From NCBI GenBank assembly GCA_963422645.2, contig CAXXVO010000005.1, positions 372,756-436,755 of the forward strand: a stretch of 64,000 nt of DNA. The letters are read 5' to 3'. The notes below the pieces were generated by a model. The model did not search any database. It was not told the origin of the DNA and saw only the letters and a list, made by a program, of their open reading frames with translations. The position numbers and the translations under genes are program-made. Within the stretch, counting starts at the first letter, position 1. Every line of letters begins with the position of its first letter. Positions 1 through 64,000 of this stretch are shown piece after piece. The stretch is from Alphaproteobacteria bacterium. GTDB taxonomy: Bacteria; Pseudomonadota; Alphaproteobacteria; UBA828.

Positions 1-774
1 ATGAACAAGGCAATCCGTTCGATCCTGATCGCACGGGGCTTCGATATCCGCCAGTTCACGCTCATGGCGTTCGGCGGCGCTGGCGGCATGGTGGCAGGCG
101 AGCTGCTCCGCATCGGTGACGTGCACCGGCTCGTCGTGCCGAGCAATCCAGGCGCAGTTTCGGCCATCGGGATGCTCGCCACCGACCTCCGCCACGACTT
201 TGCGCAGTCTTCGGTCCAGTGGTTCGGCGATGTCGTGTGGGGTGAAATCCGGCGCACCCTGCAACATCTTCGAACGCTCGGCGCAGAGCGGCTCGAGGCG
301 GACGGCGTGGCTGAAGCGGCAATGCACTTCGACGACGCGCTCGACCTGCGCTACGTCGGGCAGGACTATTACCTGCGCGTCTACGTCGATGGCGACGACC
401 TCGACGGCGAGCGCATCCGGGCCGATTTCGACCGGCTGCACGAGCACACCTACGGTTTCGCCAATCCGGAGTTCGAGGTCGAGATGGTCAATGCGCGGGT
501 CTTCGCGATCGGTGCGTTCGAGCGGCCGCAGCTTCCCGAATTCGGCGCACGCGGCTCGTCGGATGGCCCGCTCGCGCCGAAGGCGCGTCGCCCGGTGTTC
601 TTCGACGGTGCGTTCGTCGAGACGGATATCTACGATGTAAGGGCGCTGCGTGCCGAAGATGCGGTTGCCGGTCCTTGCATCATCGAGGATCCGCGCTCGA
701 CGATCATCGTCATGCCGGGCCAGAGCGCGACGGTCGATCGCTTTCGCAATCTCTCGATCGAGGTCGCGGCTTGA
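1..774 (+). CDS. Hydantoinase A / oxoprolinase family subunit (C-terminal part; starts before window)
   Basis: AFGGAGG and DLRYVGQ motifs, C-terminal GPCIIED..STIIV; directly upstream of the B subunit. Confidence 0.9.
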   Translation: MNKAIRSILIARGFDIRQFTLMAFGGAGGMVAGELLRIGDVHRLVVPSNPGAVSAIGMLATDLRHDFAQSSVQWFGDVVWGEIRRTLQHLRTLGAERLEADGVAEAAMHFDDALDLRYVGQDYYLRVYVDGDDLDGERIRADFDRLHEHTYGFANPEFEVEMVNARVFAIGAFERPQLPEFGARGSSDGPLAPKARRPVFFDGAFVETDIYDVRALRAEDAVAGPCIIEDPRSTIIVMPGQSATVDRFRNLSIEVAA

Positions 775-806
775 GGTCGCGCGGCGGGTCGGGTTGAGGG
801 GGTACC

Positions 807-2630: not shown

Positions 2631-2668
2631 TGTTCAAACACGGGAAAACCGAAGGGGAGGGCTTGATC

Positions 2669-3766
2669 ATGTGGAAGTGGATTACCGGGGCCGTTGCAGC
2701 GGTCGCGATAAGCGCGTTTGCCGTCTCGGCGTCGGAGGCGGCATTTAAGCTGGAGGGCGAGCCCAGGGTCGCGATGCTCCAGCTCGCCACCGTAAACGAC
2801 GGCGGCTGGTCTGAGGCGCTCGAGTACGCGCGGGTCAAGACCGAAGAGGCGCTGGGCATCGAGATCGCCTATACGGAGAACGTGGCCGAGGACAACTCCG
2901 AGATCCTGCGCACCATCGATCTCTACGTGAACCGGGGCCACAACATCATCATCGGCACCTCGTGGGGCTATGGCGACGCCTTCCTCGAAGCCGCCGCCAA
3001 GTACCCCAACGTGGCCTTCGTGAACTGCGCCGGCGAGACCAACAACTCGGTGAACCTGGAGAGCTTCTACGCCCGCAGCTATCAGGGCTGGTATCTCGCC
3101 GGGATCGTCGCCAGCCATCTGACGCAATCCAAGAAGGTGGGCGCCATCGGCGGCTATCCGCTGGGCGTGGTGAACTGGGACCTCAACGGCTTCCTGCGCG
3201 GGGCGCAGTCGGTGGATCCTGAAATCGAAATGGTCGGCGTCTTCGTCAACACCTGGTACGACCCGGTGAAGGAGACGCAGGCGGCAGAGGCCTTGCTGGA
3301 GCAGGGCGTCGACGTGCTGGGCTCCAACATGAGCACGCCAGGCCCGCATCTCACGTTCCAGGAGCAGGGCAAGTGGTCGGTCGGCTTCCAGGTCGACGTG
3401 TCCGACCAGGCACCGGATGCGGTGGCGACCTCGATGGTCTACAAGTGGGAGGCCTATTTCATCCCAACGATCTCTGCGATCATCGAAGGGACCTGGGAGC
3501 CTGGCGAGTGGGGCTGGTGGGAAGGAATCGATACCGGTCTCTTCGACGTCGATCCCATCGCGGACTGGGTGCCGGCAGCGGCGGTGGCGGATATCGATGC
3601 GGCGCGCGCGGCGATGGCCGCGGGCACGCTCGATCCGTTTCAGGGGCCGCTCCACCGCCAGGACGGCTCGCTGGCAGTGCCCGAGGGCGAGGTTCTCTCC
3701 GACGACAACCTGTGGGGAATGAACTACTTCGTCCAGGGCGCCATCGGCACCATGCCGGCGGAGTAA
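2669..3766 (+). CDS. BMP (purine/nucleoside-type) ABC transporter substrate-binding protein
   Basis: GGAGG RBS before ATG 2669, signal peptide, DGGW and IIIGTSWGY, WYDPVKE motifs. Confidence 0.88.
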   Translation: MWKWITGAVAAVAISAFAVSASEAAFKLEGEPRVAMLQLATVNDGGWSEALEYARVKTEEALGIEIAYTENVAEDNSEILRTIDLYVNRGHNIIIGTSWGYGDAFLEAAAKYPNVAFVNCAGETNNSVNLESFYARSYQGWYLAGIVASHLTQSKKVGAIGGYPLGVVNWDLNGFLRGAQSVDPEIEMVGVFVNTWYDPVKETQAAEALLEQGVDVLGSNMSTPGPHLTFQEQGKWSVGFQVDVSDQAPDAVATSMVYKWEAYFIPTISAIIEGTWEPGEWGWWEGIDTGLFDVDPIADWVPAAAVADIDAARAAMAAGTLDPFQGPLHRQDGSLAVPEGEVLSDDNLWGMNYFVQGAIGTMPAE

Positions 3767-3812
3767 ACCTGCCGGGCCGTTTGCGGCCCGCAAGTCGTGC
3801 CGGCGCGACAGG

Positions 3813-5312
3813 GTGAGTCATGCCCTGGAAATCGCCGGTGCGAGTAAGGCGTTCGACGGCCGCCCGGCGCTCAGGCGGGCGTCGTTCGCCTGCGACTGGG
3901 GCGAGGTCCACGCCCTGCTCGGAGAGAACGGGGCCGGCAAGTCGACGCTGATGAACGTCGCCTGCGGGCTCTATGCTCCGGACGAAGGCACCATCGCGGT
4001 CGACGCCCGGCCCGCCACGATCACCGCGCCGGCCGACGCCGCCAAGCTCGGCATCGGCATGGTCCACCAGCACTACAAGCTGGTGAAACGCTTTACGGTT
4101 GCCGAGAACATCGTGCTTGCCTGCCACAGCGCACTCGGCGTTCGGCGCCCGCGGGACGCGGCCGTGGCGGTGGCGGCGAAGGCGGCGGAAGTGGGCTTCG
4201 ACATCGACCCCGATGCTGTCGTCGGCGACCTCTCCATCGCCGAGCAGCAGCGCGTCGAAATCCTCAAGGTGCTGCTCCTCGGCGCCCGGATTCTCATCCT
4301 CGACGAGCCCACTTCGGTGCTGACCGATCAGGAATCGGTCTCGGCGCTCAGCTTCATGCGCCGCCTGGCCGAGGATGGCCACGCGGTCGTCCTGATTACG
4401 CACAAGCTGCGGGAGGTGATCGGCTATTCGTCGCGGGTGACCGTGATGCGCGGCGGCGAAACGGTGCTCGCCGGCGCCGAGACGGCGGGGATGGACGCCG
4501 AGACGCTGGCCCGGACCATGGTGGGCGAGGAAGGCGAGACGACCGAGCGCCACGCCCGGACGCTCGGCGAGGTGCGGCTCCGGGTCGAGGAGCTGAGCGT
4601 TCGCGGCGCCGGGGCCGTCGGCGTCGAAAGTGTCGGCTTTGCCGTGCGCGGCGGAGAGATATACGGGATCGCGGGCGTCGGCGGCAACGGGCAGCAGGAA
4701 CTCGCCGACGCGCTTACCGGGCTGCGCCCGCCCGCCCGTGGCCGAATCGCGATCGATGACGACGAGATCGCGGGCCGGGATGTCCCCGCCTTTCGCCGTC
4801 GCGGGATGCGCGCCGTGCCCGCCGACCGGTTCCGCACCGGCCTCCTGGCGGAGCTCGCGGTCTACGAGAACCACGGGGTGACCGGCGTGCCGGCCGGCGA
4901 ATACGGCAACCCGGCACTGGTTCGCCTTGGCGCCATGAAAGCGGCGGCGGCGGGTGCCATCGACGCCTACAACATCCAGGGTGCGGCGCCCGCCACGCTT
5001 TCCAGGCTACTTTCCGGCGGCAACGCCCAAAAGCTCCTGCTCGCGCGCGAGCTTCGGGGGAAGGCCAGCGTGCTGGTCGCCCACTCTCCCACCCGCGGAC
5101 TCGACGTGAGCGCCTGCCGCACCGTCCACGACCTGCTGCAGGGCGCGGCGGACGCGGGCACCGCCTGTGTGCTGATCAGCGAGGACCTGGAGGAGGTGCT
5201 CGCGCTCTCCACCACCATCGCCGTGATCAGCCGGGGCAGGCTGGTGGGTGAATTCGCCGCAGGCGAGGTGAGTCGCGCCGAAATCGGCCGTCTGATGCTG
5301 GGCCATGCTTAG
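3813..5312 (+). CDS. CUT2-type ABC transporter ATP-binding protein (two ATPase domains)
   Basis: GENGAGKS Walker A, LILDEPT, LSGGNAQK, PTRGLDV. Confidence 0.93.
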   Translation: MSHALEIAGASKAFDGRPALRRASFACDWGEVHALLGENGAGKSTLMNVACGLYAPDEGTIAVDARPATITAPADAAKLGIGMVHQHYKLVKRFTVAENIVLACHSALGVRRPRDAAVAVAAKAAEVGFDIDPDAVVGDLSIAEQQRVEILKVLLLGARILILDEPTSVLTDQESVSALSFMRRLAEDGHAVVLITHKLREVIGYSSRVTVMRGGETVLAGAETAGMDAETLARTMVGEEGETTERHARTLGEVRLRVEELSVRGAGAVGVESVGFAVRGGEIYGIAGVGGNGQQELADALTGLRPPARGRIAIDDDEIAGRDVPAFRRRGMRAVPADRFRTGLLAELAVYENHGVTGVPAGEYGNPALVRLGAMKAAAAGAIDAYNIQGAAPATLSRLLSGGNAQKLLLARELRGKASVLVAHSPTRGLDVSACRTVHDLLQGAADAGTACVLISEDLEEVLALSTTIAVISRGRLVGEFAAGEVSRAEIGRLMLGHA

Positions 5313-12120: not shown

Positions 12121-14008
12121 GTAACTGCCCAGGTTCTTGCTGTGAAAATTCTCTGGGATTCGGCACAACGCTACCCACGCGACGCCCGTGTGCTCCTCTG
12201 TGGTCGCCGGGTTTCACAGCTCACGATGCCCCTCTTGCGGACTGCGACCGGTAAGCTACCCCGATGTGGCCCGAAGTCCGCCCGCGCGACGGGCACCGAT
12301 TTTCATTCTATGGGGTGGTCCAGCACGGCGTCGACCATGATCGTTTATGAGAATGGCTCCGCTGTTGGAGAACCCGTGCCAGGTGAGCTTACGCGCACTT
12401 GACGGTGGCGATGAGCCGATCCGATGGGCTGGTCAGGGCTTCGATGATATTCCAGCCCTGCTTTCTGGCGGTGGTGATGACGCTGCGCAGGATGGCGAAG
12501 TTCTCGGCCCCCTGCGCGGACCGGAAGCCCCCGGAGATCTTCTGGCGCAGCTTCATCATCCGAAGGTCGCGCTCGGCCTCGTTGTTCGTGAACCCGACCT
12601 CGAGGTCGATCAGGAACCGGAGCACCGCGCATTTGTGGTCGCGCAGCCTCAAGGCCAGATTGTGACCGATCCTTCGCTTCCGGCGCTTCTTCCTCTTGCC
12701 AGGCGAGAACGGTGGTTGGCTCTCGTGAAAGGCCAGCGCATCGGCGATGATCTCGTCGTATCGGCGCTCGATCAGCGCCACAAGCCTCGCCGGAACGGCG
12801 ATATCCTTGTCCAGCGCGATGCGGGCGGCGCGATTGGCTCGGCGCAGGAGCTGCTGCATCCGCCGGGCCCAAGCCTCCCCTTCGATGTCCACCAGCGCCT
12901 GCAACTCCCGCAGGTGATGGGCGTTGCACAGGCCGTGCTCCACCCCTTCCATCGCGAAGTACGGCTTCCAGTGATCGTGCACGACGATGCCGGAGACACC
13001 CGAGAGCAGGGCGCCGCGCTTGCCGCTGACCCGGTACGCCGCCAGCAGCGGCGTGCAGATCACATGAAGCCACTGCGTCTGACCGCCGATCCGCAAGCCG
13101 GTCTCGTCCATGTGTTTCACCCGCGCCGTGCCCGCCGCCAGGTCCTGTATGTGCAAGGCCGCGTCCCGCAGCCGCTCGGCCGCCCTCTCGCTCATCGTCG
13201 CCAACGTCGCAGCCGTCACCGGCGCGCCGAAGAGCTCGGCCATCACCTGCGACAGCCGATCCTCCGGCAGGAAGTGAGCGTGCTGAAGGTAGACCGCCAC
13301 CCCGGCAATGCGCGGGCCGTACTGCACCGGCGCCGACACCCCGTCGGGGAACGCCGCCCGGGTCACCGTCCCGCAATGCCCGCAGCACTTGGCATGCGCC
13401 CGGTGCTCGGTCACCTCCAGGGGGCTCGGCTCGGGCAGATCGAACACCTGGCGGGCGACGGGCGTTCCCGCCCTGGCCGCGTCCGAAAGCGGCGAACCGC
13501 ATCCCTTGCAGGAAGCCGGGACGTGATCCTTCACCCGATCCGGGTGATCGGCGCGGCGCAGCGTCTTGCCCTTGTGGCCGGGCTGGCCACCGGGCTTGCG
13601 GCCCGATTTGCCGCGCAGGCTTCGGGTTCGCCGCTTCGAATTCGGCTTCCTCAGCCCATCGCTCGAAGGCGGCTTGCCGCTGTTGCCGCTGTTGAGGCCG
13701 AGACGGCGCTCCAACTCCTCGATGCGCTCGACGAGACGCGCGACTTGCTCTTCCAGCCGCGCGTTCTGCTGCCGAAGCCAGGCATTTTCCTCCCGAAGCC
13801 GGGCGTTCTCCTCCTCCAGGCGGGCGATCTTCTGCGCGGGCGTTTCGGGCGCTGCTCCCGTCGAAGGGCCGCGCGGCGACTCGGGATTGCTCATGTCGTT
13901 GTTGAGTCATTTCCCGAAATTCCCGTCAAGCCCTTTCCACCAACTCCGAACGAGAAACGCCTCAATCCACTGGCCCAAAATGACAAATCAGACGACCTGG
14001 GCAGTTAC
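12121..14008 (-). mobile_element. IS66-family element (single-ORF, ISBst12-like)
   Basis: Terminal IRs GTAACTGCCCAGGT / ACCTGGGCAGTTAC; 8-bp TSD AGTCCTTC at 12113-12120 and 14009-14016. Confidence 0.95.
12389..13894 (-). CDS. IS66 family transposase
   Basis: Coiled-coil N-terminus, NSGKPPSSD, GGQPGHKG, Zn-ribbon Cys pairs, DETG, CNAHHLREL, TNNEAERDLR. Confidence 0.95.
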   Translation of the reverse strand: MSNPESPRGPSTGAAPETPAQKIARLEEENARLREENAWLRQQNARLEEQVARLVERIEELERRLGLNSGNSGKPPSSDGLRKPNSKRRTRSLRGKSGRKPGGQPGHKGKTLRRADHPDRVKDHVPASCKGCGSPLSDAARAGTPVARQVFDLPEPSPLEVTEHRAHAKCCGHCGTVTRAAFPDGVSAPVQYGPRIAGVAVYLQHAHFLPEDRLSQVMAELFGAPVTAATLATMSERAAERLRDAALHIQDLAAGTARVKHMDETGLRIGGQTQWLHVICTPLLAAYRVSGKRGALLSGVSGIVVHDHWKPYFAMEGVEHGLCNAHHLRELQALVDIEGEAWARRMQQLLRRANRAARIALDKDIAVPARLVALIERRYDEIIADALAFHESQPPFSPGKRKKRRKRRIGHNLALRLRDHKCAVLRFLIDLEVGFTNNEAERDLRMMKLRQKISGGFRSAQGAENFAILRSVITTARKQGWNIIEALTSPSDRLIATVKCA

Positions 14009-19845: not shown

Positions 19846-21380
19846 CGGTGTCGCACTGGCACGAAGACCTCGCCGCCCGTAACGAGGCCTTCTGCTGCCT
19901 GAAGGAGCTTCTCGAGCCATCATCCCTCGCAACCACTGTCGTCGTTGCCGTCCGGGAATGGGGGCAGGGGCTGCTGCGATCAGCCACCGCGCTCGCCCGG
20001 GAAAATGCCGCACTCGAGCAGGAGAACGCGGCCCTGCGCGAGCGCATCGCCGAACTCGAGCGCAGCGCGGCCCTCAACAGCACCACAAGCAGCAAGCCCC
20101 CCGCCAGCGACGGGCTCAAGAAGAAAAGCGGAGCCCAGAGGCGCACCCAAAGCCAGCGCGGAAAGTCCGGCGGGCCCAGTGGCGGCCAGCCCGGCCACAA
20201 GGGAACCACCCTCGCGCGGAGCGACAGCCCGGACCGTGTCGTCGATCACCACCCCTCCACCTGTTCCGGCTGTGGCGTCGAGCTCTCGGACGCCGACCGG
20301 CAAGGCGCGCCCGCCTGTCGGCAGGTCTTCGACGTACCCGAGCCGCAGCCTCTCGAGGTCACCGAACACCGCGCCCATCGCTGCCTCTGCGGCGCATGCG
20401 GCACGCTGACACGAGCCGCCTTCCCGCCGGGCGTCACCGCCCCGGTCCAGTACGGCCCTCGCATCACCGCTTGGGTGAGTTACCTGCTGTACGCCCAGTT
20501 CGTGCCCGAGAAGCGTCTGGCCGAACTCATGAGCGACATCTTCGCGGTGTCCATCTCCACTGCCACGATCGCCGCCATGGGCCGGCGCACAGCGCAGCGC
20601 TTCGAGGGCTTCCTCGACCATGTCGCCGATCTGATCCGCACGCAGGCGCCGGTCAAGCACCTCGACGAGACCGGCCTGCGTATCGCCGCCCGTACCCGCT
20701 GGCTCCATGTGCTGTGCACCCCGTTGCTCACCGTCCTGCGCATCGGCGAGGGACGCGGCGATGTCGAAAAGAACCTGAAAGGCATCCTCGTCCACGACGA
20801 CTTCGCCCCCTACTTCACCATCAAGGGCGTCCGCCACGGCGCCTGCAACGCACATCACCTGCGCGAACTCCAGGCCCTGATCGACATCGAGAAGGAGGAA
20901 TGGGCGGCGAGCATGCACCGCCTGCTTCAGCGCGCGCGCAGGGCCGCCCGCTTCGCCCGTGAGAAAGACCGTCAAGTCCCCGCCTCCCTGGTGGCCCGCA
21001 TCTCAAGGGCATGGGACCGTATCCTCGAAGAAGCCATCGCCTTCCATGAGGCCCAACCGCCGCTCCAGATCGCAAAGCGAGGGCGAAAGAAACGCCGCAT
21101 CGGCCACAACCTCGCGCGCCGCCTTCAAAAGCATAAGGAGGGCTGCCTGCGCTTCCTCACCGACCTGCGCACGCCGTTCACGAATAACGAGGCGGAGCGT
21201 GACATCCGTATGAACAAAGTGCATGAGAAGATCTCAGGCGGCTTCCGCTCCCTGCAAGGCGCCTGCAACTTCGCCGGAATGCGCAGCGTCATCGTCACCG
21301 CTCGAAAGCAAGGCTGGAACATCCTGCAAATCCTGGCGCACCCGGAACCGATGCAGCTGATCCCTATACTGCGCTCCTGA
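19842..21380 (+). CDS. IS66 family transposase
   Basis: GTG start overlapping MTase stop (GTGA); SSKPPASD, GGQPGHKG, DETG, CNAHHLREL, TNNEAERD. Confidence 0.92.
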   Translation: MTVSHWHEDLAARNEAFCCLKELLEPSSLATTVVVAVREWGQGLLRSATALARENAALEQENAALRERIAELERSAALNSTTSSKPPASDGLKKKSGAQRRTQSQRGKSGGPSGGQPGHKGTTLARSDSPDRVVDHHPSTCSGCGVELSDADRQGAPACRQVFDVPEPQPLEVTEHRAHRCLCGACGTLTRAAFPPGVTAPVQYGPRITAWVSYLLYAQFVPEKRLAELMSDIFAVSISTATIAAMGRRTAQRFEGFLDHVADLIRTQAPVKHLDETGLRIAARTRWLHVLCTPLLTVLRIGEGRGDVEKNLKGILVHDDFAPYFTIKGVRHGACNAHHLRELQALIDIEKEEWAASMHRLLQRARRAARFAREKDRQVPASLVARISRAWDRILEEAIAFHEAQPPLQIAKRGRKKRRIGHNLARRLQKHKEGCLRFLTDLRTPFTNNEAERDIRMNKVHEKISGGFRSLQGACNFAGMRSVIVTARKQGWNILQILAHPEPMQLIPILRS

Positions 21381-43081: not shown

Positions 43082-43536
43082 TGGCGACCGAATGGGATCA
43101 GCCATTGAACGGTCGGAGCCGGGGCGGGCGGCGCCGGCGCGCGCCCATGAGCCAGATCAACGTGACGCCTTTCGTCGACGTCATGCTCGTGCTGCTGGTG
43201 ATCTTCATGATCACGGCACCGCTGCTGACGGTGGGCGTGGAGGTCGATCTTCCCAAGTCCGACGCGCCACCCTTGCCGGGAGACGACGAGCCGCTCTCGG
43301 TCACCGTTGCCCGCGACGGCACCACCTATCTTCAGGAAAGCGAGGTGACCGTCGATGAGCTGATTCCCAAGCTCGAGGCGATCACCGAGCGCCGCCCCGA
43401 TGTCCGCATATTCATTCGAGGCGACCAAGAGATCGCCTACGGCCGCGTCATGGAGGTCATGGGCGCGCTCAACAGGGCGGGCTTCAACAACCTTGCGCTG
43501 GTGACGGAACCGAGCACGGCGGGGAGCGATGAGTAA
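43081..43536 (+). CDS. tolR: TolR
   Basis: [17 protein letters not shown]...YG.VM. Confidence 0.95.
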
Positions 43537-44494
43537 GCGCGGCTGGCTTTTCTCCGGCCTCCTCCACGTCGGGGTGATCGTCGCCGCGGTGCTTGGCCTG
43601 CCGAAAGTTTTCGAGAGCGATGCGCTGGTGCCCAGCGACCAGCCGATCGTGGTCAGCCTGGTCGAGATCGCCGCCGAGGCGAGTGCGCCCGCCGAAGAGA
43701 TCGAGCCCGAGCCCGCACCGGAGCCGGAGCCTATCCCCGAAGCCGCGCCGGAACCGGAACCGGAGCCTGAGGTCGTGGCAGAGCCGGAGCCGGCGCCGGA
43801 ACCCGAGCCTGTGCCGGAACCGGAGCCGGAAGTTCTTGCCGCGTTGGATCCTGAGCCCGTCATCGAGCCCGAGCCGATCATCGAGCCGGAACCGGAGCCC
43901 GCTCCTCCGCCCGAGCCAGTCGTAGAGCCGGAGCCGGAGCCGAAGGCGCCCGAGGCGAAACCGGAGCCTCCGCCCGCGCCCGATCCACCGCCGGTTCCCA
44001 TTGCCAAGCCACCGATGAAGAAGAAGCCGAGCTTTGACACTCTGCTGCAAAGTCTTACGGACGAGGAGCCCGAGGCGGCATTGCCGCCGGCGAAAAAGGA
44101 AGAAGAGCCGTCCTTCGACGACATGCTTGCGAGCATCGCAGGCGTAGACGATAAGTCACCCGCAGCAGCCAAGGCGCCTGCCCCCCTCACTGGGCCCTTG
44201 CGGCGGACGATCACCGATGCCATCAAACGGAAGGTCGAGCGGAACTGGAGCGTTCCGGCCGGAGTCCTGGACGCCAGCGAGTTGGTGGTGACGCTGAGGA
44301 TCCAGCTGGGGCCGGACGGGGCCGTTCGACGGGTGGAAATCGTGGACGCCGACGGAGGCCCCAACTACCGGACGATGGCGGAGAGCGGTCGCCGTGCCGT
44401 GCTGAAGGCCAGCCCCTTCGACGCCTTGACGCGCCACGTGGACAAGTATGAAGGTTGGCGCGACATCACCATGACCTTCAGTCCGCCGGTGTGA
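43529..44494 (+). CDS. tolA: TolA-like protein
   Basis: N-terminal TM with S..LH motif, Glu-Pro linker, TonB/TolA-type C-domain; between tolR and tolB. Confidence 0.8.
43700..43990 (+). repeat. Coding Glu-Pro low-complexity repeat (GAGCCG/GAACCG units)
   Basis: (EP)n blocks within tolA. Confidence 0.8.
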
Positions 44495-55291: not shown

Positions 55292-56212
55292 ATGACAGCC
55301 TCACCCACCACATCCTCGGACATCGCGCAGAACGCGTGCGACTACGCCCGCATCGAAGCCGCGATCCTCTACCTCGAGGAGCACTTCCGCGATCAACCGA
55401 GCCTCGATGACGTGGCGCGGGAGGCCGGCCTCAGCCCCCATCATTTCCAGCGCTTGTTCCGGCGCTGGGCGGGCATCTCGCCCAAGCGCTTCAGCCAGTT
55501 CCTGACGCTGGACTATGCCAAGGCGCAGCTCGAAGCCTCCGCTTCGATCCTCGATGCCGCCTATGACGCCGGCCTCTCCGGCCCCTCCCGGCTGCACGAC
55601 CTCTTCGTCACCTACGAGGCGATGAGCCCCGGCGCCTTCAAGCAGGGCGGCGACGGCGTGGATATCTCATACGGCGTGCACCCGAGCCCCTTCGGCTCTT
55701 GCTTCGTCGGGCAGACCGAACGCGGCATCTGCGCCCTCGGCTTCGCTGACGACCAAAGGAGCGACACCCAAACCGTCCGCGCGGAGTTCGAGCATCGCTG
55801 GCCCGCCGCGCGATTTCGGGAAGATCAGGCCGCAACCGAACCCATCGTCGCGCGCATTTTCGATGGCCGGCAGGCGAAGGCCGTTGAACCGCTTCGGCTC
55901 GCGCTTTGTGGCACCAACTTCCAACTCAAGGTGTGGGAGGCGCTGCTGCGCATCCCGCCCGGACGCATCACGTCGTACCACGCGCTTGCCCAGGCGTTGG
56001 GGCTGCCCCGCTCGGCCCGCGCGGTGGGCGGCGCCGTCGCCGCCAACCCGGTCTCGTATCTGATCCCCTGCCACCGGGTGATCCGGCGCTCGGGCCGCAT
56101 CTCGAATTTCGAATGGGGGCAGTCTCGCAAGCGCGTCATGCTGGGTTGGGAGGCGGCACGCTTCGGATCGGAAGATCCGGATGCCGGGCAGGATCAGGCG
56201 CTTCCCGCCTGA
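55292..56212 (+). CDS. AraC-HTH / methylated-DNA-protein-cysteine methyltransferase fusion (Ada-like, no N-terminal Zn domain)
   Basis: HFQRLFRRWAGISPK HTH, GTNFQLKVW, IPCHRV active site. Confidence 0.9.
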   Translation: MTASPTTSSDIAQNACDYARIEAAILYLEEHFRDQPSLDDVAREAGLSPHHFQRLFRRWAGISPKRFSQFLTLDYAKAQLEASASILDAAYDAGLSGPSRLHDLFVTYEAMSPGAFKQGGDGVDISYGVHPSPFGSCFVGQTERGICALGFADDQRSDTQTVRAEFEHRWPAARFREDQAATEPIVARIFDGRQAKAVEPLRLALCGTNFQLKVWEALLRIPPGRITSYHALAQALGLPRSARAVGGAVAANPVSYLIPCHRVIRRSGRISNFEWGQSRKRVMLGWEAARFGSEDPDAGQDQALPA

Positions 56213-56788: not shown

Positions 56789-57883
56789 TTATTCCCCCTC
56801 CCGGTTGATCCTCGTCAAGCGCCGTCGCGCGGCTTTGAGGTCGTAGGGCTGCGCCTTATGGAGGGTCGCGAGGTAGGTCTCGGAGCCGTCCTTTGTCGCC
56901 TTGACGACGGCGCGCCGCAGGCGGCCGCTGTCTTCCATGAACCCGATGGCGACGCGCTCACCGGACGTGAACAGCTCCCCTTCGTCGAGGATGCGCTGGA
57001 CGCGGGCGTAGTCCGTGGGTTCGAGGTCCGTGTGTCTGGCGGTTTGCTTTGCGGCGCTTTCGCCGGAGAGGCGGACGGTTCGGGAGCGTGCGCCGATGGC
57101 GGCGCGGACCGGGGCGGGGAGGACGGCGAGGGGCCAGTCGGCATCGGAGGCGCCGGTAAGGTGGCGGCGGAAGAGCGCCCCGTTCCAGGGTTGGCCTATG
57201 GCGGCGCGGGCGAGTTCGTCGGGGGCGGCGTCGATCTTCCGGATCAGGCGTGCGGCGCTGTCGCGCCCCGGCCGGGCCAGGCCGACGTTGTGCTGGAAGC
57301 CGGGGTCGATGCCGATCGGGACCCGGTGGATGCGGCCGGTTCGGCGGTCGGTCCAGGAGCGCGTCCGCTCCGAACCGGAGGGCGGACCCCCGGACACCTT
57401 GTATCCGTAGCGTTCGAGGTCGTCGTCTCCGAGCTGCTGGACGATGCAGCGGCACTTCCATCCGTTGGGCGGGTAGTGGGTCTTCCAGAAGGGGTGATCG
57501 ACGGGCAGCACGGTTCCGTGCCATGCGAGGTGGTCGGGCCTGGTGCGGGCGTCCTGGACGGCGACGTAGCGGAGCCAGGGCATGGCCTCCCTGAGGCGCT
57601 CGATGCGCTCCCATCGGCCGCGGGCGTAGGCCATGCGGATGTTGGTATCGAAGATAATGCGCAGGCGGTGGGCCGAGCCGAGCTGGACGATGCGCGTCTT
57701 GCCGGTGAGGGGATCGGTCATGGGCTGCCTGCCCCACCATCCCTTGCGGACCAGGGTGGGCTGCAGCTCCTTGGCGAAGGTCTCGAAGGTTGTGCCGTCC
57801 GCGATGGCCTTGTCGGCGGCGGTGCGCAGGTCCTGGAGGATGTCGAGCTTCGCGGCCTTGGCGGCGGTGAAGGAGACCAGGTG
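56789..57883 (-). pseudogene. Phage Mu gpF-like (MuF) minor head protein with C-terminal PBECR-like nuclease domain; 5' end displaced by IS21
   Basis: FTAAKAAKLDIL, KGWWG, RL..IFDTN, DARTRPDH, HYPPNGWKCRC, GIDPGF; extra ~130-aa tail VRLS..KQ..H..DY..VVKATKDGSE.YL.TLH. Confidence 0.82.
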
Positions 57884-57886
57884 TGT

Positions 57887-58038
57887 TGTTAAGCGTGGAA
57901 AAGTGACCCCCTATTGGGGGTGATCGGCGTCCAAAATTGACCCCCTTGGATTTGTGTCCATGAACACACCTCGTCGTTTGGACGGACGGGGTGGTGGGGG
58001 AGATGCTGGTTGTGGAAACGATCGCGAAGATCCGTCGG
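57887..58038 (+). mobile_element. IS21-family left end plus first 12 codons of istA
   Basis: TGTTAAGCG..AAAGTGACCCCCT..AAAATTGACCCCCT repeats; ATG 58003 MLVVETIAKIRR then interrupted; exact first base 57884-57887. Confidence 0.75.
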
Positions 58039-58137
58039 TGAGCGTGCGCCCAGCATTTGATGGTGCGGTTTTCGGATTATTTGATGTTCGTGATGCGGCG
58101 CTTGGTTGATCTGCGAGAGCGGTGAGTGGCCTGGCTT

Positions 58138-59007
58138 TCATCGAGACCGCAGGAGCATCTCGTTCCAGTCCTTGGCGTGTCGTGGGCGCAACCTTTTCAC
58201 CCTTGGATCGTTGAGCACGAGATGCTCGGCGGCAGTGTCGCCGGCGCTGTCTGCGTCGTAGGCACAGACGATGCGACGTGGCTTCCACTCCTTGATCCAG
58301 GGCGGGACCGAGCTGGCGATGCCGGCGGTTGAGGCGACGACGGCGCCGTTCTCGCGCGTCCCCTCGACGCGCAGGCTTCGTGCAGAGATGGCGTCGACGG
58401 CGCTCTCGGTGAGGATGACGAGGGCGGGCTGGTTTCGGTCGCAGTGGAGCCAGAAGCCGCCACGCGCCTTGCGCGATCCCGGGGCCATGCCCCTGAAGCG
58501 TTTTGTTCCGGGCTGCGGCGCGGTGCCGAGGATCTCGGCGCCGGTCGTGTGCCCGCTGGCGTTTCGGCAGATGAAGACGGCGTTGATCCTGTCATCGGCG
58601 TAGAGGAGGCCTCGGCCGTGGCAGGCTTCGAGCACGTCGGTGCCGATAGCGCGTTGGCGGATGAGGGCGTCCCGGACCCTGGGCCAGGCGCGGGGACTGG
58701 GCCTTGGCAGCCGCAGGCGTCGCGGGGCGGCTGGGATGGTGGTGATCTCCCTCCGCCCCTCATGGCTTCCGAGGAAGCGGAGGGCTTCCGGGAAGCGGCA
58801 TCCCGTCGCATGGATGACGAGGTCGATGGCGCCACCCCCTCCCGTGCCGCGCAGGTGATCGAAGAACTTCTCGCCGTTGATGCTGATGACCGAGCCCCCG
58901 CGCTTGAAGCGCGCCCGGTCGGTCGGGTCTCTGCGGTAGCCGAGGGCGGCGGCGACCCGGTCGAGGGGGATGTTGCGGCAGGTGGCCAGGGGATCGCCGC
59001 CGCTCAT
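58138..59007 (-). CDS. DUF3991/Toprim primase-like protein
   Basis: GGGAIDLV..F.EAL, LTESAVDAIS, AYDADSAGD (Toprim DxD), KDWNE. Confidence 0.8.
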   Translation of the reverse strand: MSGGDPLATCRNIPLDRVAAALGYRRDPTDRARFKRGGSVISINGEKFFDHLRGTGGGGAIDLVIHATGCRFPEALRFLGSHEGRREITTIPAAPRRLRLPRPSPRAWPRVRDALIRQRAIGTDVLEACHGRGLLYADDRINAVFICRNASGHTTGAEILGTAPQPGTKRFRGMAPGSRKARGGFWLHCDRNQPALVILTESAVDAISARSLRVEGTRENGAVVASTAGIASSVPPWIKEWKPRRIVCAYDADSAGDTAAEHLVLNDPRVKRLRPRHAKDWNEMLLRSR

Positions 59008-59048
59008 TGCCGGGTCCCGGCGAAGGTCTGCTTGGAAGGGAGGCTGAC

Positions 59049-59109
59049 GGCGTTCCCGTTCCTGTACCCTTCAACGCTTAAGAGTTCCGGGAACGGGAAC
59101 GGGAACGCC
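59049..59109. repeat. GGGAAC/GTTCCC iteron-like palindrome between helicase and primase genes (copy 1)
   Basis: Perfect 14-bp IR GGCGTTCCCGTTCC / GGAACGGGAACGCC, three tandem GGGAAC, relatively AT-rich centre. Confidence 0.75.
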
Positions 59110-59619
59110 TCATCCCGCACTTCCGTTGATGGCGGCAGGGGATTGCGGCTCCCGGTGCGCCTCGGCGGCTGCGAGGCGATAGCCACCCCTGGGCGCCCGT
59201 TCGATGCGCCCCTCCCTGGTGAGGCTCTCGATGGCGGCAACGACGGTGGCGTTGCGGGCAGCGGCGCGTGAGCGGATCTGGGCTTTCGAGAGCGGCTTTT
59301 CGGCCTGCTCGATCGCCTTGAAGACGCGCTGCTCGACGGTGGCGGGCTCGTGCCTGTCTTCATCTGCCGCGTCCTGGTGCAGACGGAAGGCCGGCCCATG
59401 TCCGCCGTCGACGAGTTCCAGCTCGATGTCGTTGAGGCCCCGGGCGTCGCGCTGCTCGACCGTCATGACGATCTTCTTGTCGCGCCGGCGCAGGTACAGA
59501 TTTGAGTCACCCCAAGCGTGCAGCTCGCTGCTCCCGCGCAGGGCCTGCCCCGGCCGGGTGCCGCCGCTCTTGCGGGCGTGGTGGACGAGGAGGACGGCGG
59601 TTTCGAAGCGGCGCTGCAG
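59110..59619 (-). pseudogene. 3' part of RepA/AAA_25-type helicase gene (copy 1), cut by copy 2
   Basis: LQRRFETAVLLVHHARK..RGSSEL.AWGDS, C-terminal wHTH-like segment. Confidence 0.75.
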
Positions 59620-59690
59620 TGAGCGCGCGCGGTCTTTCAGCGGGGATCGGGGCCTGATCCGCTCGGATTTGTTGAGGTTTTGGGGCGGGT

Positions 59691-59731
59691 GCCCCTCGGC
59701 GAACTTGCAAGAAGTTCGCCGGGGGGCTTTG
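59691..59731 (+). terminator. Strong hairpin, possible intrinsic terminator inside the element end
   Basis: GCCCCTCGGCGAACTT-GCAAG-AAGTTCGCCGGGGGGC followed by TTTGT. Confidence 0.5.
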
Positions 59732-59769
59732 TCTCGTGGTGACGGTCACAATCGCCAGAGACGGCCCCA

Positions 59770-60387
59770 ATGTCGCACAACATTTTCCGCCACTCCATGC
59801 TTTGCAACGCCCTGGTCTGGGCCTGGCTGCGCGAGGTCGATGAGGCCGAGGCGGCGCGCTGCCGCGAGGCGGGCTGCCGACACTGCCCCGGCAAGCTGCA
59901 CAGCGCGACGTATCCGCGCAAGCCGTACGGTCTGGCAGCCGAGTTGAGGGAAGAGGGCACGCGGCGGTTCAGCTTCTGCTGCGCGGATTGCCGCCTGCGA
60001 GCGACCCCACCATCGGTACGATTCTTCGGGCGCCGCTTTTATCTGGGCGCCCTGTTCGTTCTGTTGAGTGCACTGGTTCTGAGAGGCGGGGTGCGGTTGC
60101 AGACGATCAAGCGGAAGTGGGGGGTCTCGGTCGCCACACTGCGCCGCTGGCGGAAGTGGTGGCTGGAGGCGTTCCCGGCGACGGAGCCCTGGGGAGCGAA
60201 GCGTGGCGAACTGGTGATGCCACCCGAGGAGGTGCCGCTGCTCTTCGTGCTGCGGCAGATGCGGGGCGGACGCTTCGGTGAGCGTCTGTTCCTGAGCCTG
60301 ATCTGGTTCAAGCCGTGGACGGGCTATTGCGGGCTCGGCGATGGCTCGGCGCCGCCCGCAGAAAGTGTTCCTGTCACGCCCGGATAG
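59770..60387 (+). CDS. Transposon-associated Cys-rich (Zn-finger) + HTH hypothetical protein
   Basis: CRHC..YPRKP..FSFCCADCR..TPPSVRF and V..ATLRRWR.WW; first gene of the element. Confidence 0.7.
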   Translation: MSHNIFRHSMLCNALVWAWLREVDEAEAARCREAGCRHCPGKLHSATYPRKPYGLAAELREEGTRRFSFCCADCRLRATPPSVRFFGRRFYLGALFVLLSALVLRGGVRLQTIKRKWGVSVATLRRWRKWWLEAFPATEPWGAKRGELVMPPEEVPLLFVLRQMRGGRFGERLFLSLIWFKPWTGYCGLGDGSAPPAESVPVTPG

Positions 60388-60436
60388 GGCGTTCTACATG
60401 GGCATCTCTCCGATGCGGCGAGGGAGGGATGCCGGA

Positions 60437-61914
60437 ATGGACAAGGACGACGCAGGCGCCAGGCGCGAGAAGTGGGCCCGGCTGCGCTTTGCGGTGGTGG
60501 GGCCGCTTCTGGCTTCACCGCCGCCTGCAGGCCAGCTGGGGGCCGAGTTCGAGCGTCTGTCGCAGCGCGACTGGGAGCACCCGTCGGGCAAGGGGCCGGT
60601 GCGCTTTGCGGCCTCGACGATCGAGCGCTGGTACTACCGGGCGCGGGCAGAGGAGCAGGACCCGGTCAAGGCGCTGCGCCGGAAGCCTCGGACCGACGTC
60701 GGCCGCGAGCGGTCCATGTCGGCGGGGCTGATCGCGGCGCTGCGCGAGCAGTACCGGGTCCATCCCTCGTGGGCGGCGCAGCTCCACTACGAGACCCTCA
60801 AGGCTCATGTTGCGACCCATCCCGAGCTCGGCCCGATGCCGTCCTACGCGACGCTGACGCGGGCGATGCGCAATCGCGGCCTGGTGCGCGAGCGCCCCAG
60901 GAAGTGGCACGAGGGTGAGGACAAGCCGGCGGTCGAAGCCCGCGAGGTCCTTAGCTACGAGGTGTCTCGCAGTCACGCGCTGTGGCACGGGGACTTCCAC
61001 CACGGCAAGCGCCGCGTGCTGACGGCGTCGGGCGAATGGCAGACGCCCATCCTGCTCGGCTTCCTCGACGACCACTCCAGGCTTGGCTGCCACCTGCAGT
61101 GGTACCTGGAGGAGACCGCCGAGGTCTTCGTCCACGGGCTCTGTCAGGCCTTCATGAAGAGGGACTTGCCCAGGTCCCTGCTGACCGACAACGGCGGGCC
61201 GATGACGGCGGGCGAGGTCGAGGAGGGCTTGCACCGCCTCGGCATCGTGGGGGCCACGACACTCGCTTACAGCCCCCATCAAAATGGAAAAATCGAGTCG
61301 TTCTGGGGCACGGTCGAGGGCCGCCTGATGGCTCAGCTCGAAGGCGTCGACGCGCTCACCCTGAAGATGCTCAACGACGCCACCATAGCCTGGCTGGAGC
61401 AGGACTACCATCGGCGGGTGCACCGCGAGCTCGGCATGACGCCGCATGAACGCCTCGCCGGGAGCGTCAAGGCATCGAGGCCCTGCCCCGCCTCGGACGA
61501 GCTCAAGGCGGCCTTCCGCATCGCCAGGAAGCGCACGCTCAGGCGCTCGGACGGCACCGTCTCGGTCGAGGGCATCCGCTACCAGGTGCCACAGCCGTGG
61601 CGCCACCTGAGGACGCTCTGGGTCCGCTATGCGCGCTGGGACCTCAGCGGCGTCGGATCTGGTGGAAGGCCGAAGCGGCGAGCGCGCTGTGCACGCTGTA
61701 CCCCCTCGACAAGCGCGGCAACGCCGATGGCGTCCGCCGTCCTGCGAGACCCGGCAGCGACCATGGCGGCGCCAGCGCGGGCGTCGGCGAACTTCCGCCG
61801 CTGCTCAAGGGCGTGCTCGACGCCCAGGCCGCAACAGGCCTGCCGCCGGCCTGGGTACCCCATAACAAGACGCCCGGTCCGGGCGAGGACGACGATCAGG
61901 GAGATCCGTCATGA
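60437..61914 (+). CDS. DDE (rve/Mu-TnsB-like) transposase; two apparent +1 frameshifts near 61655-61690
   Basis: HTH (STIERW), LWHGD, DDHSR, TDNG, NGKIE; C-terminal Mu-transposase-like beta domain. Confidence 0.85.
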
Positions 61915-62751
61915 ACCGCGAGCTGCTCACCTTCTACGGGCTCAAATGGAACCCCTTCGCCACCGACCTTCCGGTCGACAGCCTCATGGTGAGCCCCGCC
62001 GTCGACAGCTTCTGCCTCAGAATCGAGCATCATCTTGTGCGCCAGGGCGGCTTCGCGTTGATCGCCGGCGAGCCCGGCACCGGAAAGAGCGTGGCGTTGC
62101 GCGTGCTCGCCGACCGCCTCGGCCGCTCGGACGGGCTCAGGGTCTGTGCCATCACCCACCCCTCTTCCAGGCTGTCCGACTTCTACTCGCGAGATCGGCG
62201 GGATGTTCGGCGTCGACCTGATGTACAACAACCGCTGGGCCAGCTTCAAAAACCTGCGCGAGCGATGGCTCACCCATGTCGACGACACCCGCATGCGGCC
62301 CGTGGTGCTCATCGACGAGGCCCAGGAGCTGCTGCCCTCGGTGATCTCCGAGATCCGCCTGCTGGCGTCCACCGACTTCGACTCAGCGCGCCATCCTCTC
62401 GGTCGTCTTCGCGCCGGCGACAGCCGCCTGATCGACAGGCTTCCGCCAGCCCGACTTGCAGCCCATCGGCCTCGCGCCTGCGCCAGCGCCTGGTCATGAC
62501 CCAGGCAGACGCCGGCGACCTCGCGGCCCTGCTCGACCATCTGGTCGAGCAGGCCGGCAATCCGGGCCTCATGAGCGCAGAGCTCAAGGACACCCCTGGT
62601 CACCCACGCCGGCGGCAACCCCAGGGCGCTTACCGTCATGGGCGACATGCTGCTCGCCGCCGGCGCCGAGAAGAACCGCGAGGTTCTCGACGAGAAGCTC
62701 TTCATGGAGATCCTGGGCGAGCCCGCCAAGCCGAAGAGGGCACGGCGGTGA
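61911..62751 (+). CDS. ExeA/MuB/TnsC-like AAA+ ATPase (several apparent frameshifts)
   Basis: YGLKWNPF, GEPGTGKS, VLIDEAQE, AGGNPR; ATGA overlap with transposase stop. Confidence 0.78.
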
Positions 62752-63756
62752 AGGGCTTCCCGACACGGGCGCCGATGCAGCTCGAGGATCGCCCCCGGGC
62801 GCAACAGTGGATGGTGGACACGCTGTGGGCCGAGCAGGCCGTGGGCATCGTCGGCGGCGAGCCCAAGTGCGGCAAATCCCTGCTCGCGCTCGATCTCGCC
62901 GTCGCCGTGGCCACCGGCGTCCCATGCCTGCGCCACTACCGCCCCAGCGCAAGCGGGCACCGTGCTGCTCTTCGCCGCCGAGGACGCCGGCCACAGGGGT
63001 GCGCAAGCGTCTGCAGGGGATCGCCCGCGCCGCCGCCACCCCCCTTCGACGAACTCGACCATCGCCGTCATCGACGTGCCCACCCTGCGTCTCGACCGGC
63101 CCGGCGACCGTCAACGCCTGCAGCAGACCGTGGAGCGCATCGAACCGCGCCTCCTGATCCTCGATCCCCTGGTCCGCCTGCACAGCGTCGACGAGAACGC
63201 CGTCGCAGAGATCGCCCCCATACCTCGGCTTCCTGCGCGAACTGCAGCGCCGCTTCGAAACCGCCGTCCTCCTCGTCCACCACGCCCGCAAGAGCGGCGG
63301 CACCCGGCCGGGGCAGGCCCTGCGCGGGAGCAGCGAGCTGCACGCTTGGGGTGACTCAAATCTGTACCTGCGCCGGCGCGACAAGAAGATCGTCATGACG
63401 GTCGAGCAGCGCGACGCCCGGGGCCTCAACGACATCGAGCTGGAACTCGTCGACGGCGGACATGGGCCGGCCTTCCGTCTGCACAGGACGCGGCAGATGA
63501 AGACAGGCACGAGCCCGCCACCGTCGAGCAGCGCGCGTCTTCAAGGCGATCGAGCAGGGCCGAAAAGCCGCTCTCGAAAGCCCAGATCCGCTCACGCGCC
63601 GCTGCCCGGCAACGCCACCGTCGTTGCCGCCATCGAGAGCCTCACCAGGGAGGGGCGCATCGAACGGGGCGCCCAGGGGTGGCTATCGCCTCGCAGCCGC
63701 CGAGGCGCACCGGGAGCCGCAATCCCCCTGCCGCCATCAACGGAAGTGCGGGATGA
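62748..63756 (+). CDS. RepA/AAA_25-type (RecA-fold) helicase (several apparent frameshifts)
   Basis: GGEPKCGKS, LLFAAED, LLILDPL, VHHARK, RGSS; GTGA overlap with ATPase stop. Confidence 0.78.
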
Positions 63757-63819
63757 GGCGTTCCCGTTCCCGTTCCCGGAACTCTTAAGCGTTGAATGGG
63801 TACAGGAACGGGAACGCCG
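63757..63819. repeat. GTTCCC/GGGAAC iteron-like palindrome (copy 2)
   Basis: Inverted copy of 59049-59109. Confidence 0.7.
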
Positions 63820-63860
63820 TCAGCCTCCCTTCCAAGCAGGACCTTCGCCGGGACCCGGCA

Positions 63861-64000
63861 ATGAGCGGCGGCCGATCCCCTGGCCACCTGCCGCAACATC
63901 CCCCTCGACCGGGTCGCCGCCGCCCTCGGCTACCGCAGAGACCCGACCGACCGGGCGCGCTTCAAGCGCGGGTGGCTCGGTCATCAGCATCAACGGCGAG
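63861..64000 (+). CDS. DUF3991/Toprim primase-like protein (copy 2, partial)
   Basis: Matches the 5' end of 58138-59007 apart from indels. Confidence 0.7.
   Translation, partial: MSGGRSPGHLPQHPPRPGRRRPRLPQRPDRPGALQARVARSSASTA

Follow-up and report, generated by a model that had tools for sequence, protein, structure and literature searches.

A multicopy DDE transposon carrying a helicase-like ATPase, an iteron hairpin and, in one sub-lineage, a DnaG-fold primase

DDE transposons that act with AAA+ partners (Mu, Tn7, IS21, Tn552) are textbook borrowers of the host replisome. Can such a transposon carry a replication module of its own? The question is raised by the end of an alphaproteobacterial contig, where two incomplete copies of one element lie in inverted orientation: the window, as we call the whole stretch of 64,000 nt that was analysed (contig C6, CAXXVO010000005.1, positions 372756-436755), stops exactly at the contig end. 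Here we show that this element is a recently active, multicopy 5.19-kb DDE transposon belonging to a large Tn6049-related family, that a hairpin of inverted TTCC/GGAA iterons is a core part of those family members that bear an AAA_25 gene, and that the sub-lineage including this element adds a primase, of DnaG fold in its predicted structure, between the hairpin and the right end. From gene content and sequence, we give a rough probability of 0.45 to the reading that these parts would form an element-encoded primosome serving the DNA synthesis step of transposition.

A compact transposon with replication-type genes

Element positions are counted on one intact reference copy, L001 (contig C9:31295-36483, 5,189 bp), which carries the following features.

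151-768: ORF1, 205 amino acids (aa), with a CxxC...CCxxC zinc ribbon and a helix-turn-helix (HTH)
818-2293 (upstream ATG at 722): transposase TnpA, 491 aa, with an rve core
2290-3123: AAA+ ATPase, 277 aa, MuB/ExeA/GspA-like (AAA_22, 6.2e-19)
3120-4118: AAA_25 RecA-fold ATPase, 332 aa (AAA_25, 2.5e-36)
4119-4195: iteron hairpin of inverted hexamer iterons, with three CGTTCC units, a loop and two GGAACG units
4221-5090: DUF3991/Toprim protein, 289 aa, with a DnaG-type fold

The ends of the element read TGAGCGCGCGCGG... and ...GGGCGCACGCTCA, which form short imperfect inverted repeats with the core TGAGCG...CGCTCA. The left end found at window position 59620 (TGAGCGCGCG) is also the left end of the eight full copies elsewhere in the genome, and the right end (L001 5189; window 58039) lies 99 bp beyond the primase stop, with no other cargo. 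Stop and start codons overlap between TnpA and the ATPase (ATGA, 2290-2293) and between the ATPase and the AAA_25 gene (GTGA, 3120-3123). An earlier reading of the window, made from its letters alone and referred to here as the sequence-only reading, had proposed the TG-starting end at 59620, a gene order running from a Zn-finger/HTH protein through a DDE transposase, an AAA+ ATPase and a RepA/AAA_25 protein to a palindrome and a Toprim gene, overlapping codons in transposase, ATPase and helicase genes, and a right end at 58039 about 100 bp past the primase stop that would delimit a unit of ~5.2 kb without other cargo. All of this is borne out by the intact copies.

A megablast survey of the host genome with one full copy as query returned 44 matching pieces. 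They include eight uninterrupted copies of 5,189-5,192 bp (on C4, C8 (three), C9, C13 (two) and C19), four copies split by insertion sequence (IS) elements, two near-full copies, one of which is cut by a contig start, and about 25 fragments. Copies are 99.4-100% identical, and the eight full ones differ at a handful of sites. The four split copies (C11:82970-87697 with 80741-81205; C18:61466-68422; C19:9476-16827; C8:588811-596163) each hold an insert, of ~1.76 kb at element 4726-4729 or of ~2.16 kb at either 1332-1335 or 3075-3078, and the 4-bp overlap present at every split indicates that other IS elements inserted into the transposon. Direct repeats flank three of the eight full copies (ACAT, CCGT and TTCCC), the other five having none. 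Most fragment junctions in this genome, which is heavily rearranged by IS elements, adjoin other high-copy repeats, so that rearrangement by recombination is likely. Two 5'-truncated copies also lie head to tail at C3:162385-166181, where the right end of one (3226-5190) abuts internal position 3359 of the next; the break falls inside the AAA_25 gene, as does the break at 3608 in the window. The 13-nt left-end motif occurs 39 times in the genome, against 26 right-end motifs and about 24 left-end-bearing copies, which leaves some 15 fragments or look-alikes.

Related units recur in other genomes, in forms with and without the primase.

OZ224045: repeat unit of 4,384 bp, no primase
OZ220705: repeat unit of 4,355 bp, no primase
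OZ219866: repeat unit of 4,410 bp, no primase
CAVZBG: repeat unit of 4,918 bp, no primase
OZ219747: repeat unit of 5,161 bp, primase present

Units are 100% identical within a record (for instance, ten copies of 4,384 bp), and a single genome can hold tens of identical copies of a family member. In four other multicopy genomes target duplications are present at all 19 insertions (five of 4 bp, thirteen of 5 bp and one of 6 bp), and the insertion sites are heterogeneous with a weak CCNGG-like bias. Seen against what Mu-type replicative transposition would leave, duplications flank 19 of 19 insertions in those four genomes and three of eight full copies in the IS-rearranged host genome. Simple insertions with duplications fit cut-and-paste or copy-out/paste-in transposition better than an intramolecular, Shapiro-type replicative process, and the clean 4-6-bp duplications argue against the simple version of that process; to this extent the replicative transposition named in the sequence-only reading is not supported.

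Relatives were collected by a TnpA scan of species-representative genomes, in which at least 475 stretches matched and at least 446 encode a relative; the synteny counts given below rest on the best 80 loci, from 57 assemblies. Record titles of these 80 loci span Alpha- and Gammaproteobacteria, Acidobacteriota, Gemmatimonadota, Myxococcota, Planctomycetota, Verrucomicrobiota and Dormibacterota, a spread to be read with the caveat that short repeat contigs in bins of metagenome-assembled genomes are possibly mis-binned. Near-identical TnpA sequences (branch lengths 0.015-0.05) occur in bins of different phyla, namely L034 and L039 (Alphaproteobacteria/Dormibacterota), L002 and L011 (Alphaproteobacteria/Gemmatimonadota) and L051 and L069 (Acetobacteraceae/Verrucomicrobiota), either through recent cross-phylum transfer or through mis-binning.

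ORF1 immediately precedes TnpA in 73 of the 80 loci; its match to HTH_23 is weak in L001 and reaches 3.4e-6 in L002, an atlas search gives a cluster lead to DUF6431/HTH_23, and residues C70, C71 and C74 and a WRxWW motif are conserved over 53 sequences. In distant-clade elements (L076:5538-6290, matching part of L043 and L057) about 750 bp separate the left end from the aligned part of ORF1, and the in-frame ORF1 extension at L076:5788-6882 has no Pfam match. TnpA shows a D,D(35)E triad whose residues D186, D251 and E287 are invariant in 26 sequences. It matches Pfam rve (2.7e-6, 28 bits, below the cutoff of 32.6) and HTH_32, the NCBIfam IS481 model (NF033577; 9e-34, 117 bits, below the cutoff of 224) and the PHROG transposase family phrog_310 (6e-35), and its relatives number in the thousands in metagenome protein sets. 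The AAA+ ATPase matches TIGR03015 (ExeA-like; 6.8e-28, below cutoff) and phrog_296, 'DNA transposition protein' (6e-19).

The fourth gene encodes a RecA-fold ATPase with similarity to RSF1010 RepA (1g8y; E 1.9e-8) and to PHROG helicase-primase families. Its Walker A, Walker B and other motifs (GGEPKxGKS, LDPxVRLH) are invariant in 28 sequences. The structural model, which is of moderate overall confidence (predicted local distance difference test, pLDDT, of 65), places a C-terminal winged helix at residues 258-312 (pLDDT ~90), and a Foldseek search returns DnaB as the top match, together with RepA, RadA, Rad51 and KaiC. Helicase is the best-supported label for this putative enzyme on sequence grounds, and it is a label rather than a demonstrated activity, because RadA, Rad51 and KaiC also match on a model of moderate confidence.

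The ATPase gene is followed at once by the AAA_25 gene in 66 of the 80 loci, or 66 of the 67 that are testable. Among the 14 loci without an adjoining AAA_25 gene, the ATPase is partial or absent in eight, less than 1 kb remains downstream in five, and a single one (L037) has room for the gene. Pairwise TnpA and AAA_25 distances across 38 non-redundant elements are correlated with r = 0.95 (0 of 999 permutations as high), and with r values of 0.79 and 0.94 in the two main clades; these correlations match those between TnpA and the ATPase, and mean divergence is equal. The AAA_25 gene, which co-diverges with TnpA to the same degree as the ATPase gene, is therefore a core gene and not recent cargo. 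Its winged-helix-bearing profile collects 1,202 clusters (50% identity) at E ≤ 1e-30. In a survey of 18 other species of the host genus and 12 genomes from other genera, the gene occurs in seven of the 18 species (68, 25, 13, 6, 3, 1 and 1 matches) and in none of the 12 genomes. The nearest relatives outside transposons are 28-43% identical. One relative lies beside a plasmid replication initiator gene and another directly after a gene for a PriCT-2 primase domain on a phage-plasmid, while in three viral contigs relatives are found in the early region upstream of the terminase and portal genes.

Between the AAA_25 gene and the primase gene of L001 lies the iteron hairpin, which folds as DNA with -24.3 kcal/mol (z -5.0). 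A strict pattern, defined as at least two TTCC-type units, a spacer and at least two GGAA-type units, occurs in the interval -60..+330 nt around the AAA_25 end in 29 of 56 loci; the other 626,651 nt of locus DNA give no match. Variants missed by this pattern are seen by eye in nearly all other loci, L065 having the left arm only. The arm units differ by lineage and do so in both arms (GTTCC/GGAAC, GCTTCC/GGAAGC, GTTACC/GGTAAC, GTTTCC/GGAAAC and AGTTCC/GGAACT), and the loop keeps a CCCTA..AG/CTACAG-like motif. Five of six single-stranded DNA folds give z values of -4.5 to -8.3, and one gives -2.1. The start of the last helix of the winged helix varies alongside the iteron, with RNATV accompanying GTTCC, RPATV accompanying GTTACC and R(T/A)xTL accompanying GCTTCC, a pairing that may serve as a lead to recognition. 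Rfam scans of the L001 and L002 elements return nothing above chance, the best hits being miRNA models with E values of 0.1-0.8. Four-gene elements from two genomes share, at L002:10330-10574 and L010:10350-10600, a conserved stretch of ~250 bp that runs from the hairpin to the right end and is rich in further GC hairpins; the L002 scan gives no Rfam match for it.

The last gene encodes the DUF3991/Toprim protein. A Foldseek search with its AlphaFold model (pLDDT 86.7) yields 39 matches at E ≤ 1e-3, all of them primase domains of DnaG, T7 gp4, T4 gp61 or Twinkle (2au3, 1nui and 1eqn at the top), whereas the Toprim nucleases JetD and RecR score 1e-2 or worse. The catalytic Toprim residues E201, D251 and D253 are invariant in 24 sequences. 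In place of a CHC2 zinc-binding domain the protein has a conserved FFDHxxGxGGGAIDL segment without the Cys/His ligand set and with a weak alignment to the zinc-binding domain of 1d0q (E 0.027); in sequence and model, the N terminus looks like a zinc-binding-like domain that would have lost its cysteines.

The distribution of the primase is narrower than that of the AAA_25 gene. Of the 40 loci in which a complete AAA_25 gene is followed by 1.2 kb or more of sequence, five carry it, and these five belong to three assemblies. In a quick TnpA tree rooted at its midpoint, elements with and without the primase intermingle in one clade, so that several gains or losses are needed. Many homologues have 50-94% identity, several of them on contigs of ~5.2 kb, and another genome of the host genus holds 12 copies with an adjacent Toprim gene, 86% identical. 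Plasmid relatives are often fused to MobV relaxases, including one on a plasmid of 2.9 kb. A third congener has 11 Toprim matches, 47% identical, in a different, IS21-like repeat.

L086:4004-8245 and L087:3884-8125: IS21-like repeat of 4,242 bp, 100% identical between the two loci

This repeat encodes an IstA-like transposase (rve and Mu-transpos_C_2), next to it an IstB_IS21 ATPase (1.5e-56), and as its third gene the Toprim protein; an upstream open reading frame (ORF) of 148 aa is without a Pfam match. With a 47% homologue as the third gene of an IS21-like element, two unrelated DDE/AAA+ transposon families have acquired this primase.

The palindrome noticed in the sequence-only reading is thus real and conserved in related elements, and its assignment of the Toprim protein to the primases agrees with the DnaG-primase fold. 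Its expectation that helicase and primase would be conserved together within the same ends holds for the helicase gene and fails for the primase gene.

What the module may do

In the reading that we prefer, the AAA_25 protein would act as a hexameric helicase, which its winged helix would bring to the element by binding to the iteron hairpin. Joined by the primase that the element itself encodes, or by a host primase in the four-gene forms, it would constitute an element-encoded primosome. This primosome would drive the DNA synthesis that copies the element, either in a copy-out step as in IS3-type transposition or at strand-transfer forks as in Mu, and would make the element independent of helicase loaders and restart factors that are specific to a host.

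A number of observations weigh against this proposal. None of the five proteins has a polymerase domain in Pfam, NCBIfam and PHROG searches, and no replication intermediate or circle has been observed. The helicase-like gene is dispensable in the wider family: L037 carries other small ORFs in its place, and Tn6049, without AAA_25, is present in 12 copies in strain CH34 (PMC2864759). The primase is absent from 35 of the 40 testable loci, and the congener with 68 AAA_25 matches has no Toprim match. The fold search, made with a moderately confident model, does not separate DnaB and RepA helicases from RadA, Rad51 and KaiC. As for the DNA site, mismatches between the arms show no strand bias (by eye, four G-T on the plus strand against three on the minus strand), and the data therefore do not separate a hairpin from a symmetric duplex site; the iterons are spaced by six bases, closer than winged-helix sites on duplex DNA usually stand; and the pairing of winged helix with iteron is seen in three lineages only.

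The absence of the AAA_25 gene from Tn6049 and L037 leads to a somewhat unlikely alternative, in which the AAA_25/winged-helix protein is a transposition accessory, concerned with target capture at forks or single-stranded DNA, with immunity or with regulation, and occupies the slot behind the AAA+ regulator that belongs to TnsD, TnsE or TniQ in Tn7/Tn5053. The fourth gene would then be a variable position, taken by AAA_25 here, by a 71-aa ORF in Tn6049 and by small ORFs in L037. The RecA fold that the protein has in common with the single-stranded-DNA-binding RadA and Rad51 would suit such a role, and the hairpin, which stands at the operon end where a terminator is expected, would be an operator or terminator. 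With insertion sites that are heterogeneous and only weakly CCNGG-like, however, there is no site-specific selector, and the iterated arms and conserved loop motif exceed what a terminator needs. The sequence kinship to RepA and to phage helicase-primase families also speaks for replication, which the recurrent link to a primase fits better. If, on the other hand, initiator-like winged helix, iterons and RepA-like ATPase are compared with small replicons, which they resemble, a plasmid-like phase comes to mind: the transposase would excise or copy out a circle, the AAA_25/winged-helix protein would initiate at the hairpin as an origin, and the circle would replicate and reinsert. Toprim relatives fused to MobV relaxases on small plasmids and AAA_25 relatives adjoining plasmid and phage replication genes are in keeping with it. 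We nevertheless regard it as unlikely, since the assembled genome has no junction of a right end with a left end within 30 bp, element-sized metagenome contigs start at the left end and are not permuted (in L011, for example, ORF1 begins at 147, compared with 151 in L001), the hairpin has no AT-rich unwinding region beside it, and partition and copy-control genes are missing. End-to-end joints are also absent from four public Logan contig sets, a result without weight either way, as contigs cannot show rare forms.

Cargo is common in transposons, and the primase is patchy on the TnpA tree; helicase and primase might accordingly be passengers with no role in transposition, whether remnants of phage or plasmid replication or anti-phage or anti-defence cargo, and Toprim domains are known from defence nucleases (PMC8649781). 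This is improbable, given that the AAA_25 gene co-diverges with TnpA as tightly as the ATPase gene does and is kept in 4.4-kb units without spare room, that the fold of the Toprim protein matches primases and not nucleases, and that PADLOC finds no significant defence match in the element (AAA_25 matches only AbiEi, 0.0055, and Toprim only the DnaG-like part of a DRT system, 3e-9). Least credible of all, and very improbable, is that the unit is a fragment of a Mu-like prophage, a satellite or an integrative and conjugative element, or else an assembly artefact. A Phage_Mu_F-like ORF 300 bp away, PHROG matches of TnpA and the ATPase to families of transposable phages, and the inverted duplication and numerous indels at the contig end where the window stops could all suggest it. 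The same 5.19-kb unit with the same ends is, however, found intact eight times in long contigs, each time between other neighbours, many genomes contain related units flanked by target duplications, TnpA has no tblastn match in 50,697 phage records, and the Mu F ORF lies outside the ends. The defined ends, the duplications, the many identical copies and the lack of a phage match thus uphold the view, implicit in the sequence-only reading, that the element is none of these.

The element-encoded primosome, our preferred reading, can be extended to a more general proposal, which we hold tentatively and as doubtful in its full breadth: a large class of DDE transposons crossing phyla would carry its own primosome, in which a winged helix anchors a RepA-like helicase to an iteron hairpin and to which a DnaG-type primase is added in some cases, and would copy itself independently of host-specific loaders and restart proteins; recruitment of the same primase by an IS21-like element would further suggest that self-priming is recurrent in replicative bacterial transposons. 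If the module acts in replication, a family of 4.4-5.2 kb with a helicase-like ATPase, a hairpin and sometimes a primase would change the picture of transposons that borrow from the host. It would explain the spread of the family across hosts with different primosomes, and would provide a compact system for the study of replisome assembly at transposition intermediates. Even if the module is not replicative, this uncharacterised family contributes in a major way to the rearrangement of genomes by IS elements in the host genus.

The two copies in the window

A self-BLAST of window positions 57800-64000 against their own genome shows that a single repeat is represented twice, at 58039-59620 on the minus strand and at 59620-64000 on the plus strand, with the following features.

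58039..59620, minus strand: copy 1, the right-hand 1,582 bp of the element (3608-5189), no indels
58039..58051: right terminal repeat of copy 1, which reads TGAGCGTGCGCCC inward on the plus strand
58138..59007, minus strand: DUF3991/Toprim gene of copy 1, 289 aa (Pfam DUF3991 1.7e-10, Toprim_2 3.3e-9)
59033..59109: iteron hairpin of copy 1, between the AAA_25 and primase genes
59110..59620, minus strand: C-terminal part of the AAA_25/winged-helix protein of copy 1, about residues 164-332
59620..64000, plus strand: copy 2, the left 4.36 kb of the element (1-4358), cut by the contig end
59620..59632: left terminal repeat of copy 2, TGAGCGCGCGCGG
59691..59727: GC-rich hairpin inside the left end (element 72-108), 16-bp stem and 5-nt loop
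59770..60387, plus strand: ORF1, 205 aa, zinc ribbon and HTH
60437..61914, plus strand: TnpA, 491 aa from the ATG at 60437, with an upstream ATG at 60341; frameshifted by insertions at 61655 and 61685
61911..62751, plus strand: AAA+ ATPase (277 aa in intact copies), frameshifted in copy 2
62748..63756, plus strand: AAA_25 ATPase with winged helix (332 aa in intact copies), frameshifted in copy 2
63757..63834: iteron hairpin of copy 2
63861..64000, plus strand: start of the copy 2 primase gene (~46 codons), truncated where the contig stops

The GC-rich hairpin inside the left end may, from its sequence, be a read-through terminator or an operator. Copy 2 departs from L001 by 22 insertion events, one deletion and a single substitution; every indel lies within 61655-63974, a stretch free of substitutions, and these indels are absent from eight other copies. 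Because the differences are almost wholly indels, unique to copy 2 and restricted to the final 2.3 kb of the contig, we judge them to be consensus errors at a poorly supported contig end, and the TnpA, ATPase and AAA_25 frames are therefore broken in the window copy only. Programmed frameshifts and frameshifts by decay were rejected on the same grounds. The pattern suggests that the last ~2.3 kb of contig C6 are poorly polished, and other contig ends of the assembly may be similarly affected.

An inverted repeat of ~750 bp (58870-59626 and 63235-64000) is the overlap of the two inverted element copies. An element with long inverted terminal repeats, which this repeat might suggest, was rejected, as full copies elsewhere have none. 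The inner break of copy 1, at element 3608 inside the AAA_25 gene, abuts the left end of copy 2. A search of the genome for the missing half of copy 1, in the form of element 1-3608 joined to a right end, found none, the nearest piece (1-3595, on C10) abutting unique DNA. The junction arose either by insertion of copy 2 into copy 1 or by rearrangement.

Beyond the right end of copy 1, positions 57884-58038 are the first 155 bp of a different IS (~2.55 kb, about 69 copies in the genome), cut by that right end; the end of the same IS also abuts several truncated copies of the transposon. The preceding 84 bp (57800-57883) recur at six further genome sites with 99-100% identity. Outside both the transposon and the IS fragment, a 310-aa ORF at 56789-57721 on the minus strand has a Phage_Mu_F head-morphogenesis domain (3e-18) and may be a prophage remnant. 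Farther away, 55292-56212 on the plus strand encodes an Ada-like protein with AraC-type HTH and 6-O-methylguanine DNA methyltransferase domains, imperfect tandem repeats at 43703-43948 form a Pro/Glu-rich coding stretch within the ORF at 43529-44494, and 12434-12593 and 21176-21335 are the arms of a 160-nt inverted repeat, which are 76% complementary and separated by 8.6 kb.

Comparison with known systems

The closest named relative is Tn6049 of Cupriavidus metallidurans CH34, found also on the Pseudomonas aeruginosa plasmid pHS87a. Its first three genes correspond in kind and order to those of the element: ORF1, a TnpA with ~50% identity across 93-95% of the protein, and an ATPase of GspA/ExeA type. 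Short imperfect TG-starting terminal repeats and 4-5-bp direct repeats (PMC4739549) are likewise common to both. At 3.5 kb, however, Tn6049 has as its fourth gene a 71-aa ORF without a Pfam match, followed by an ordinary GC hairpin, and lacks the AAA_25 gene, the TTCC-iteron hairpin and the primase, all three of which are present in the 5,189 bp of the element described here. Its TnpA nests among AAA_25-bearing lineages (support 80) on the quick TnpA tree, and Tn6049 may therefore have lost AAA_25. The compact, bounded DDE transposon proposed by the earlier reading is thus confirmed, although it is a relative of Tn6049 and not, as that reading implied, a class without known kin. The PGAP label of the Tn6049 TnpA is 'IS481 family transposase'; from the IS481 family the element differs in a TnpA below the equivalog cutoff and in its five genes in place of a single ORF. 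A search of openly available full texts, which leave most subscription journals outside, turned up no paper on a member of this family that carries a helicase or primase.

With Mu and the B3/D3112-type phages the element shares an rve-fold DDE transposase with an AAA+ ATPase, TG...CA ends and duplications of ~5 bp, and both proteins match PHROG phage transposase and 'DNA transposition protein' families. Unlike these phages, it is without phage genes, and its TnpA is without Mu-transposase Pfam domains. Mu replication uses the host proteins PriA, DnaB, DnaC and DnaG, whereas this element carries helicase-like and primase genes of its own. Tn7, Tn5053/Tn402 and Tn552 show the same operon logic of a DDE transposase, an AAA+ protein and a further accessory gene, with duplications of the 5-bp class. 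They differ from the element in that it has no TnsA, TniQ/TnsD, TnsE or resolvase, its accessory protein is a RepA-like RecA-fold ATPase, and its targets are not site-specific. IS21 is likewise a two-protein DDE and AAA+ system (IstA and IstB, the latter a DnaC-like paralogue), and the IS21-like element of one congener carries a homologue of the primase, yet on the IS21 model TnpA scores 37 bits against a cutoff of 160, and the ATPase is AAA_22/ExeA-like rather than IstB_IS21.

For the replication-type genes the nearest parallel is the plasmid RSF1010 (RepA, RepB', RepC and ssiA/ssiB), which also combines a RepA-type RecA-fold ATPase, a separate plasmid-type primase and hairpin DNA signals. 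RSF1010 has a host-independent priming mechanism, and the same benefit is proposed for the element. The two differ in that the element has no RepC homologue, its DNA-binding domain is fused to the ATPase, its primase is of DnaG/Toprim type rather than RepB', and it is a transposon rather than a plasmid. The concept of a transposon that carries its own replication proteins is met again in casposons and in Polintons/Mavericks, the Polintons combining an rve integrase with replication genes. These elements, however, encode a protein-primed or family B DNA polymerase and measure 10-20 kb, and casposons use Cas1, whereas the transposon described here would supply a helicase, with or without a primase, and nothing more.

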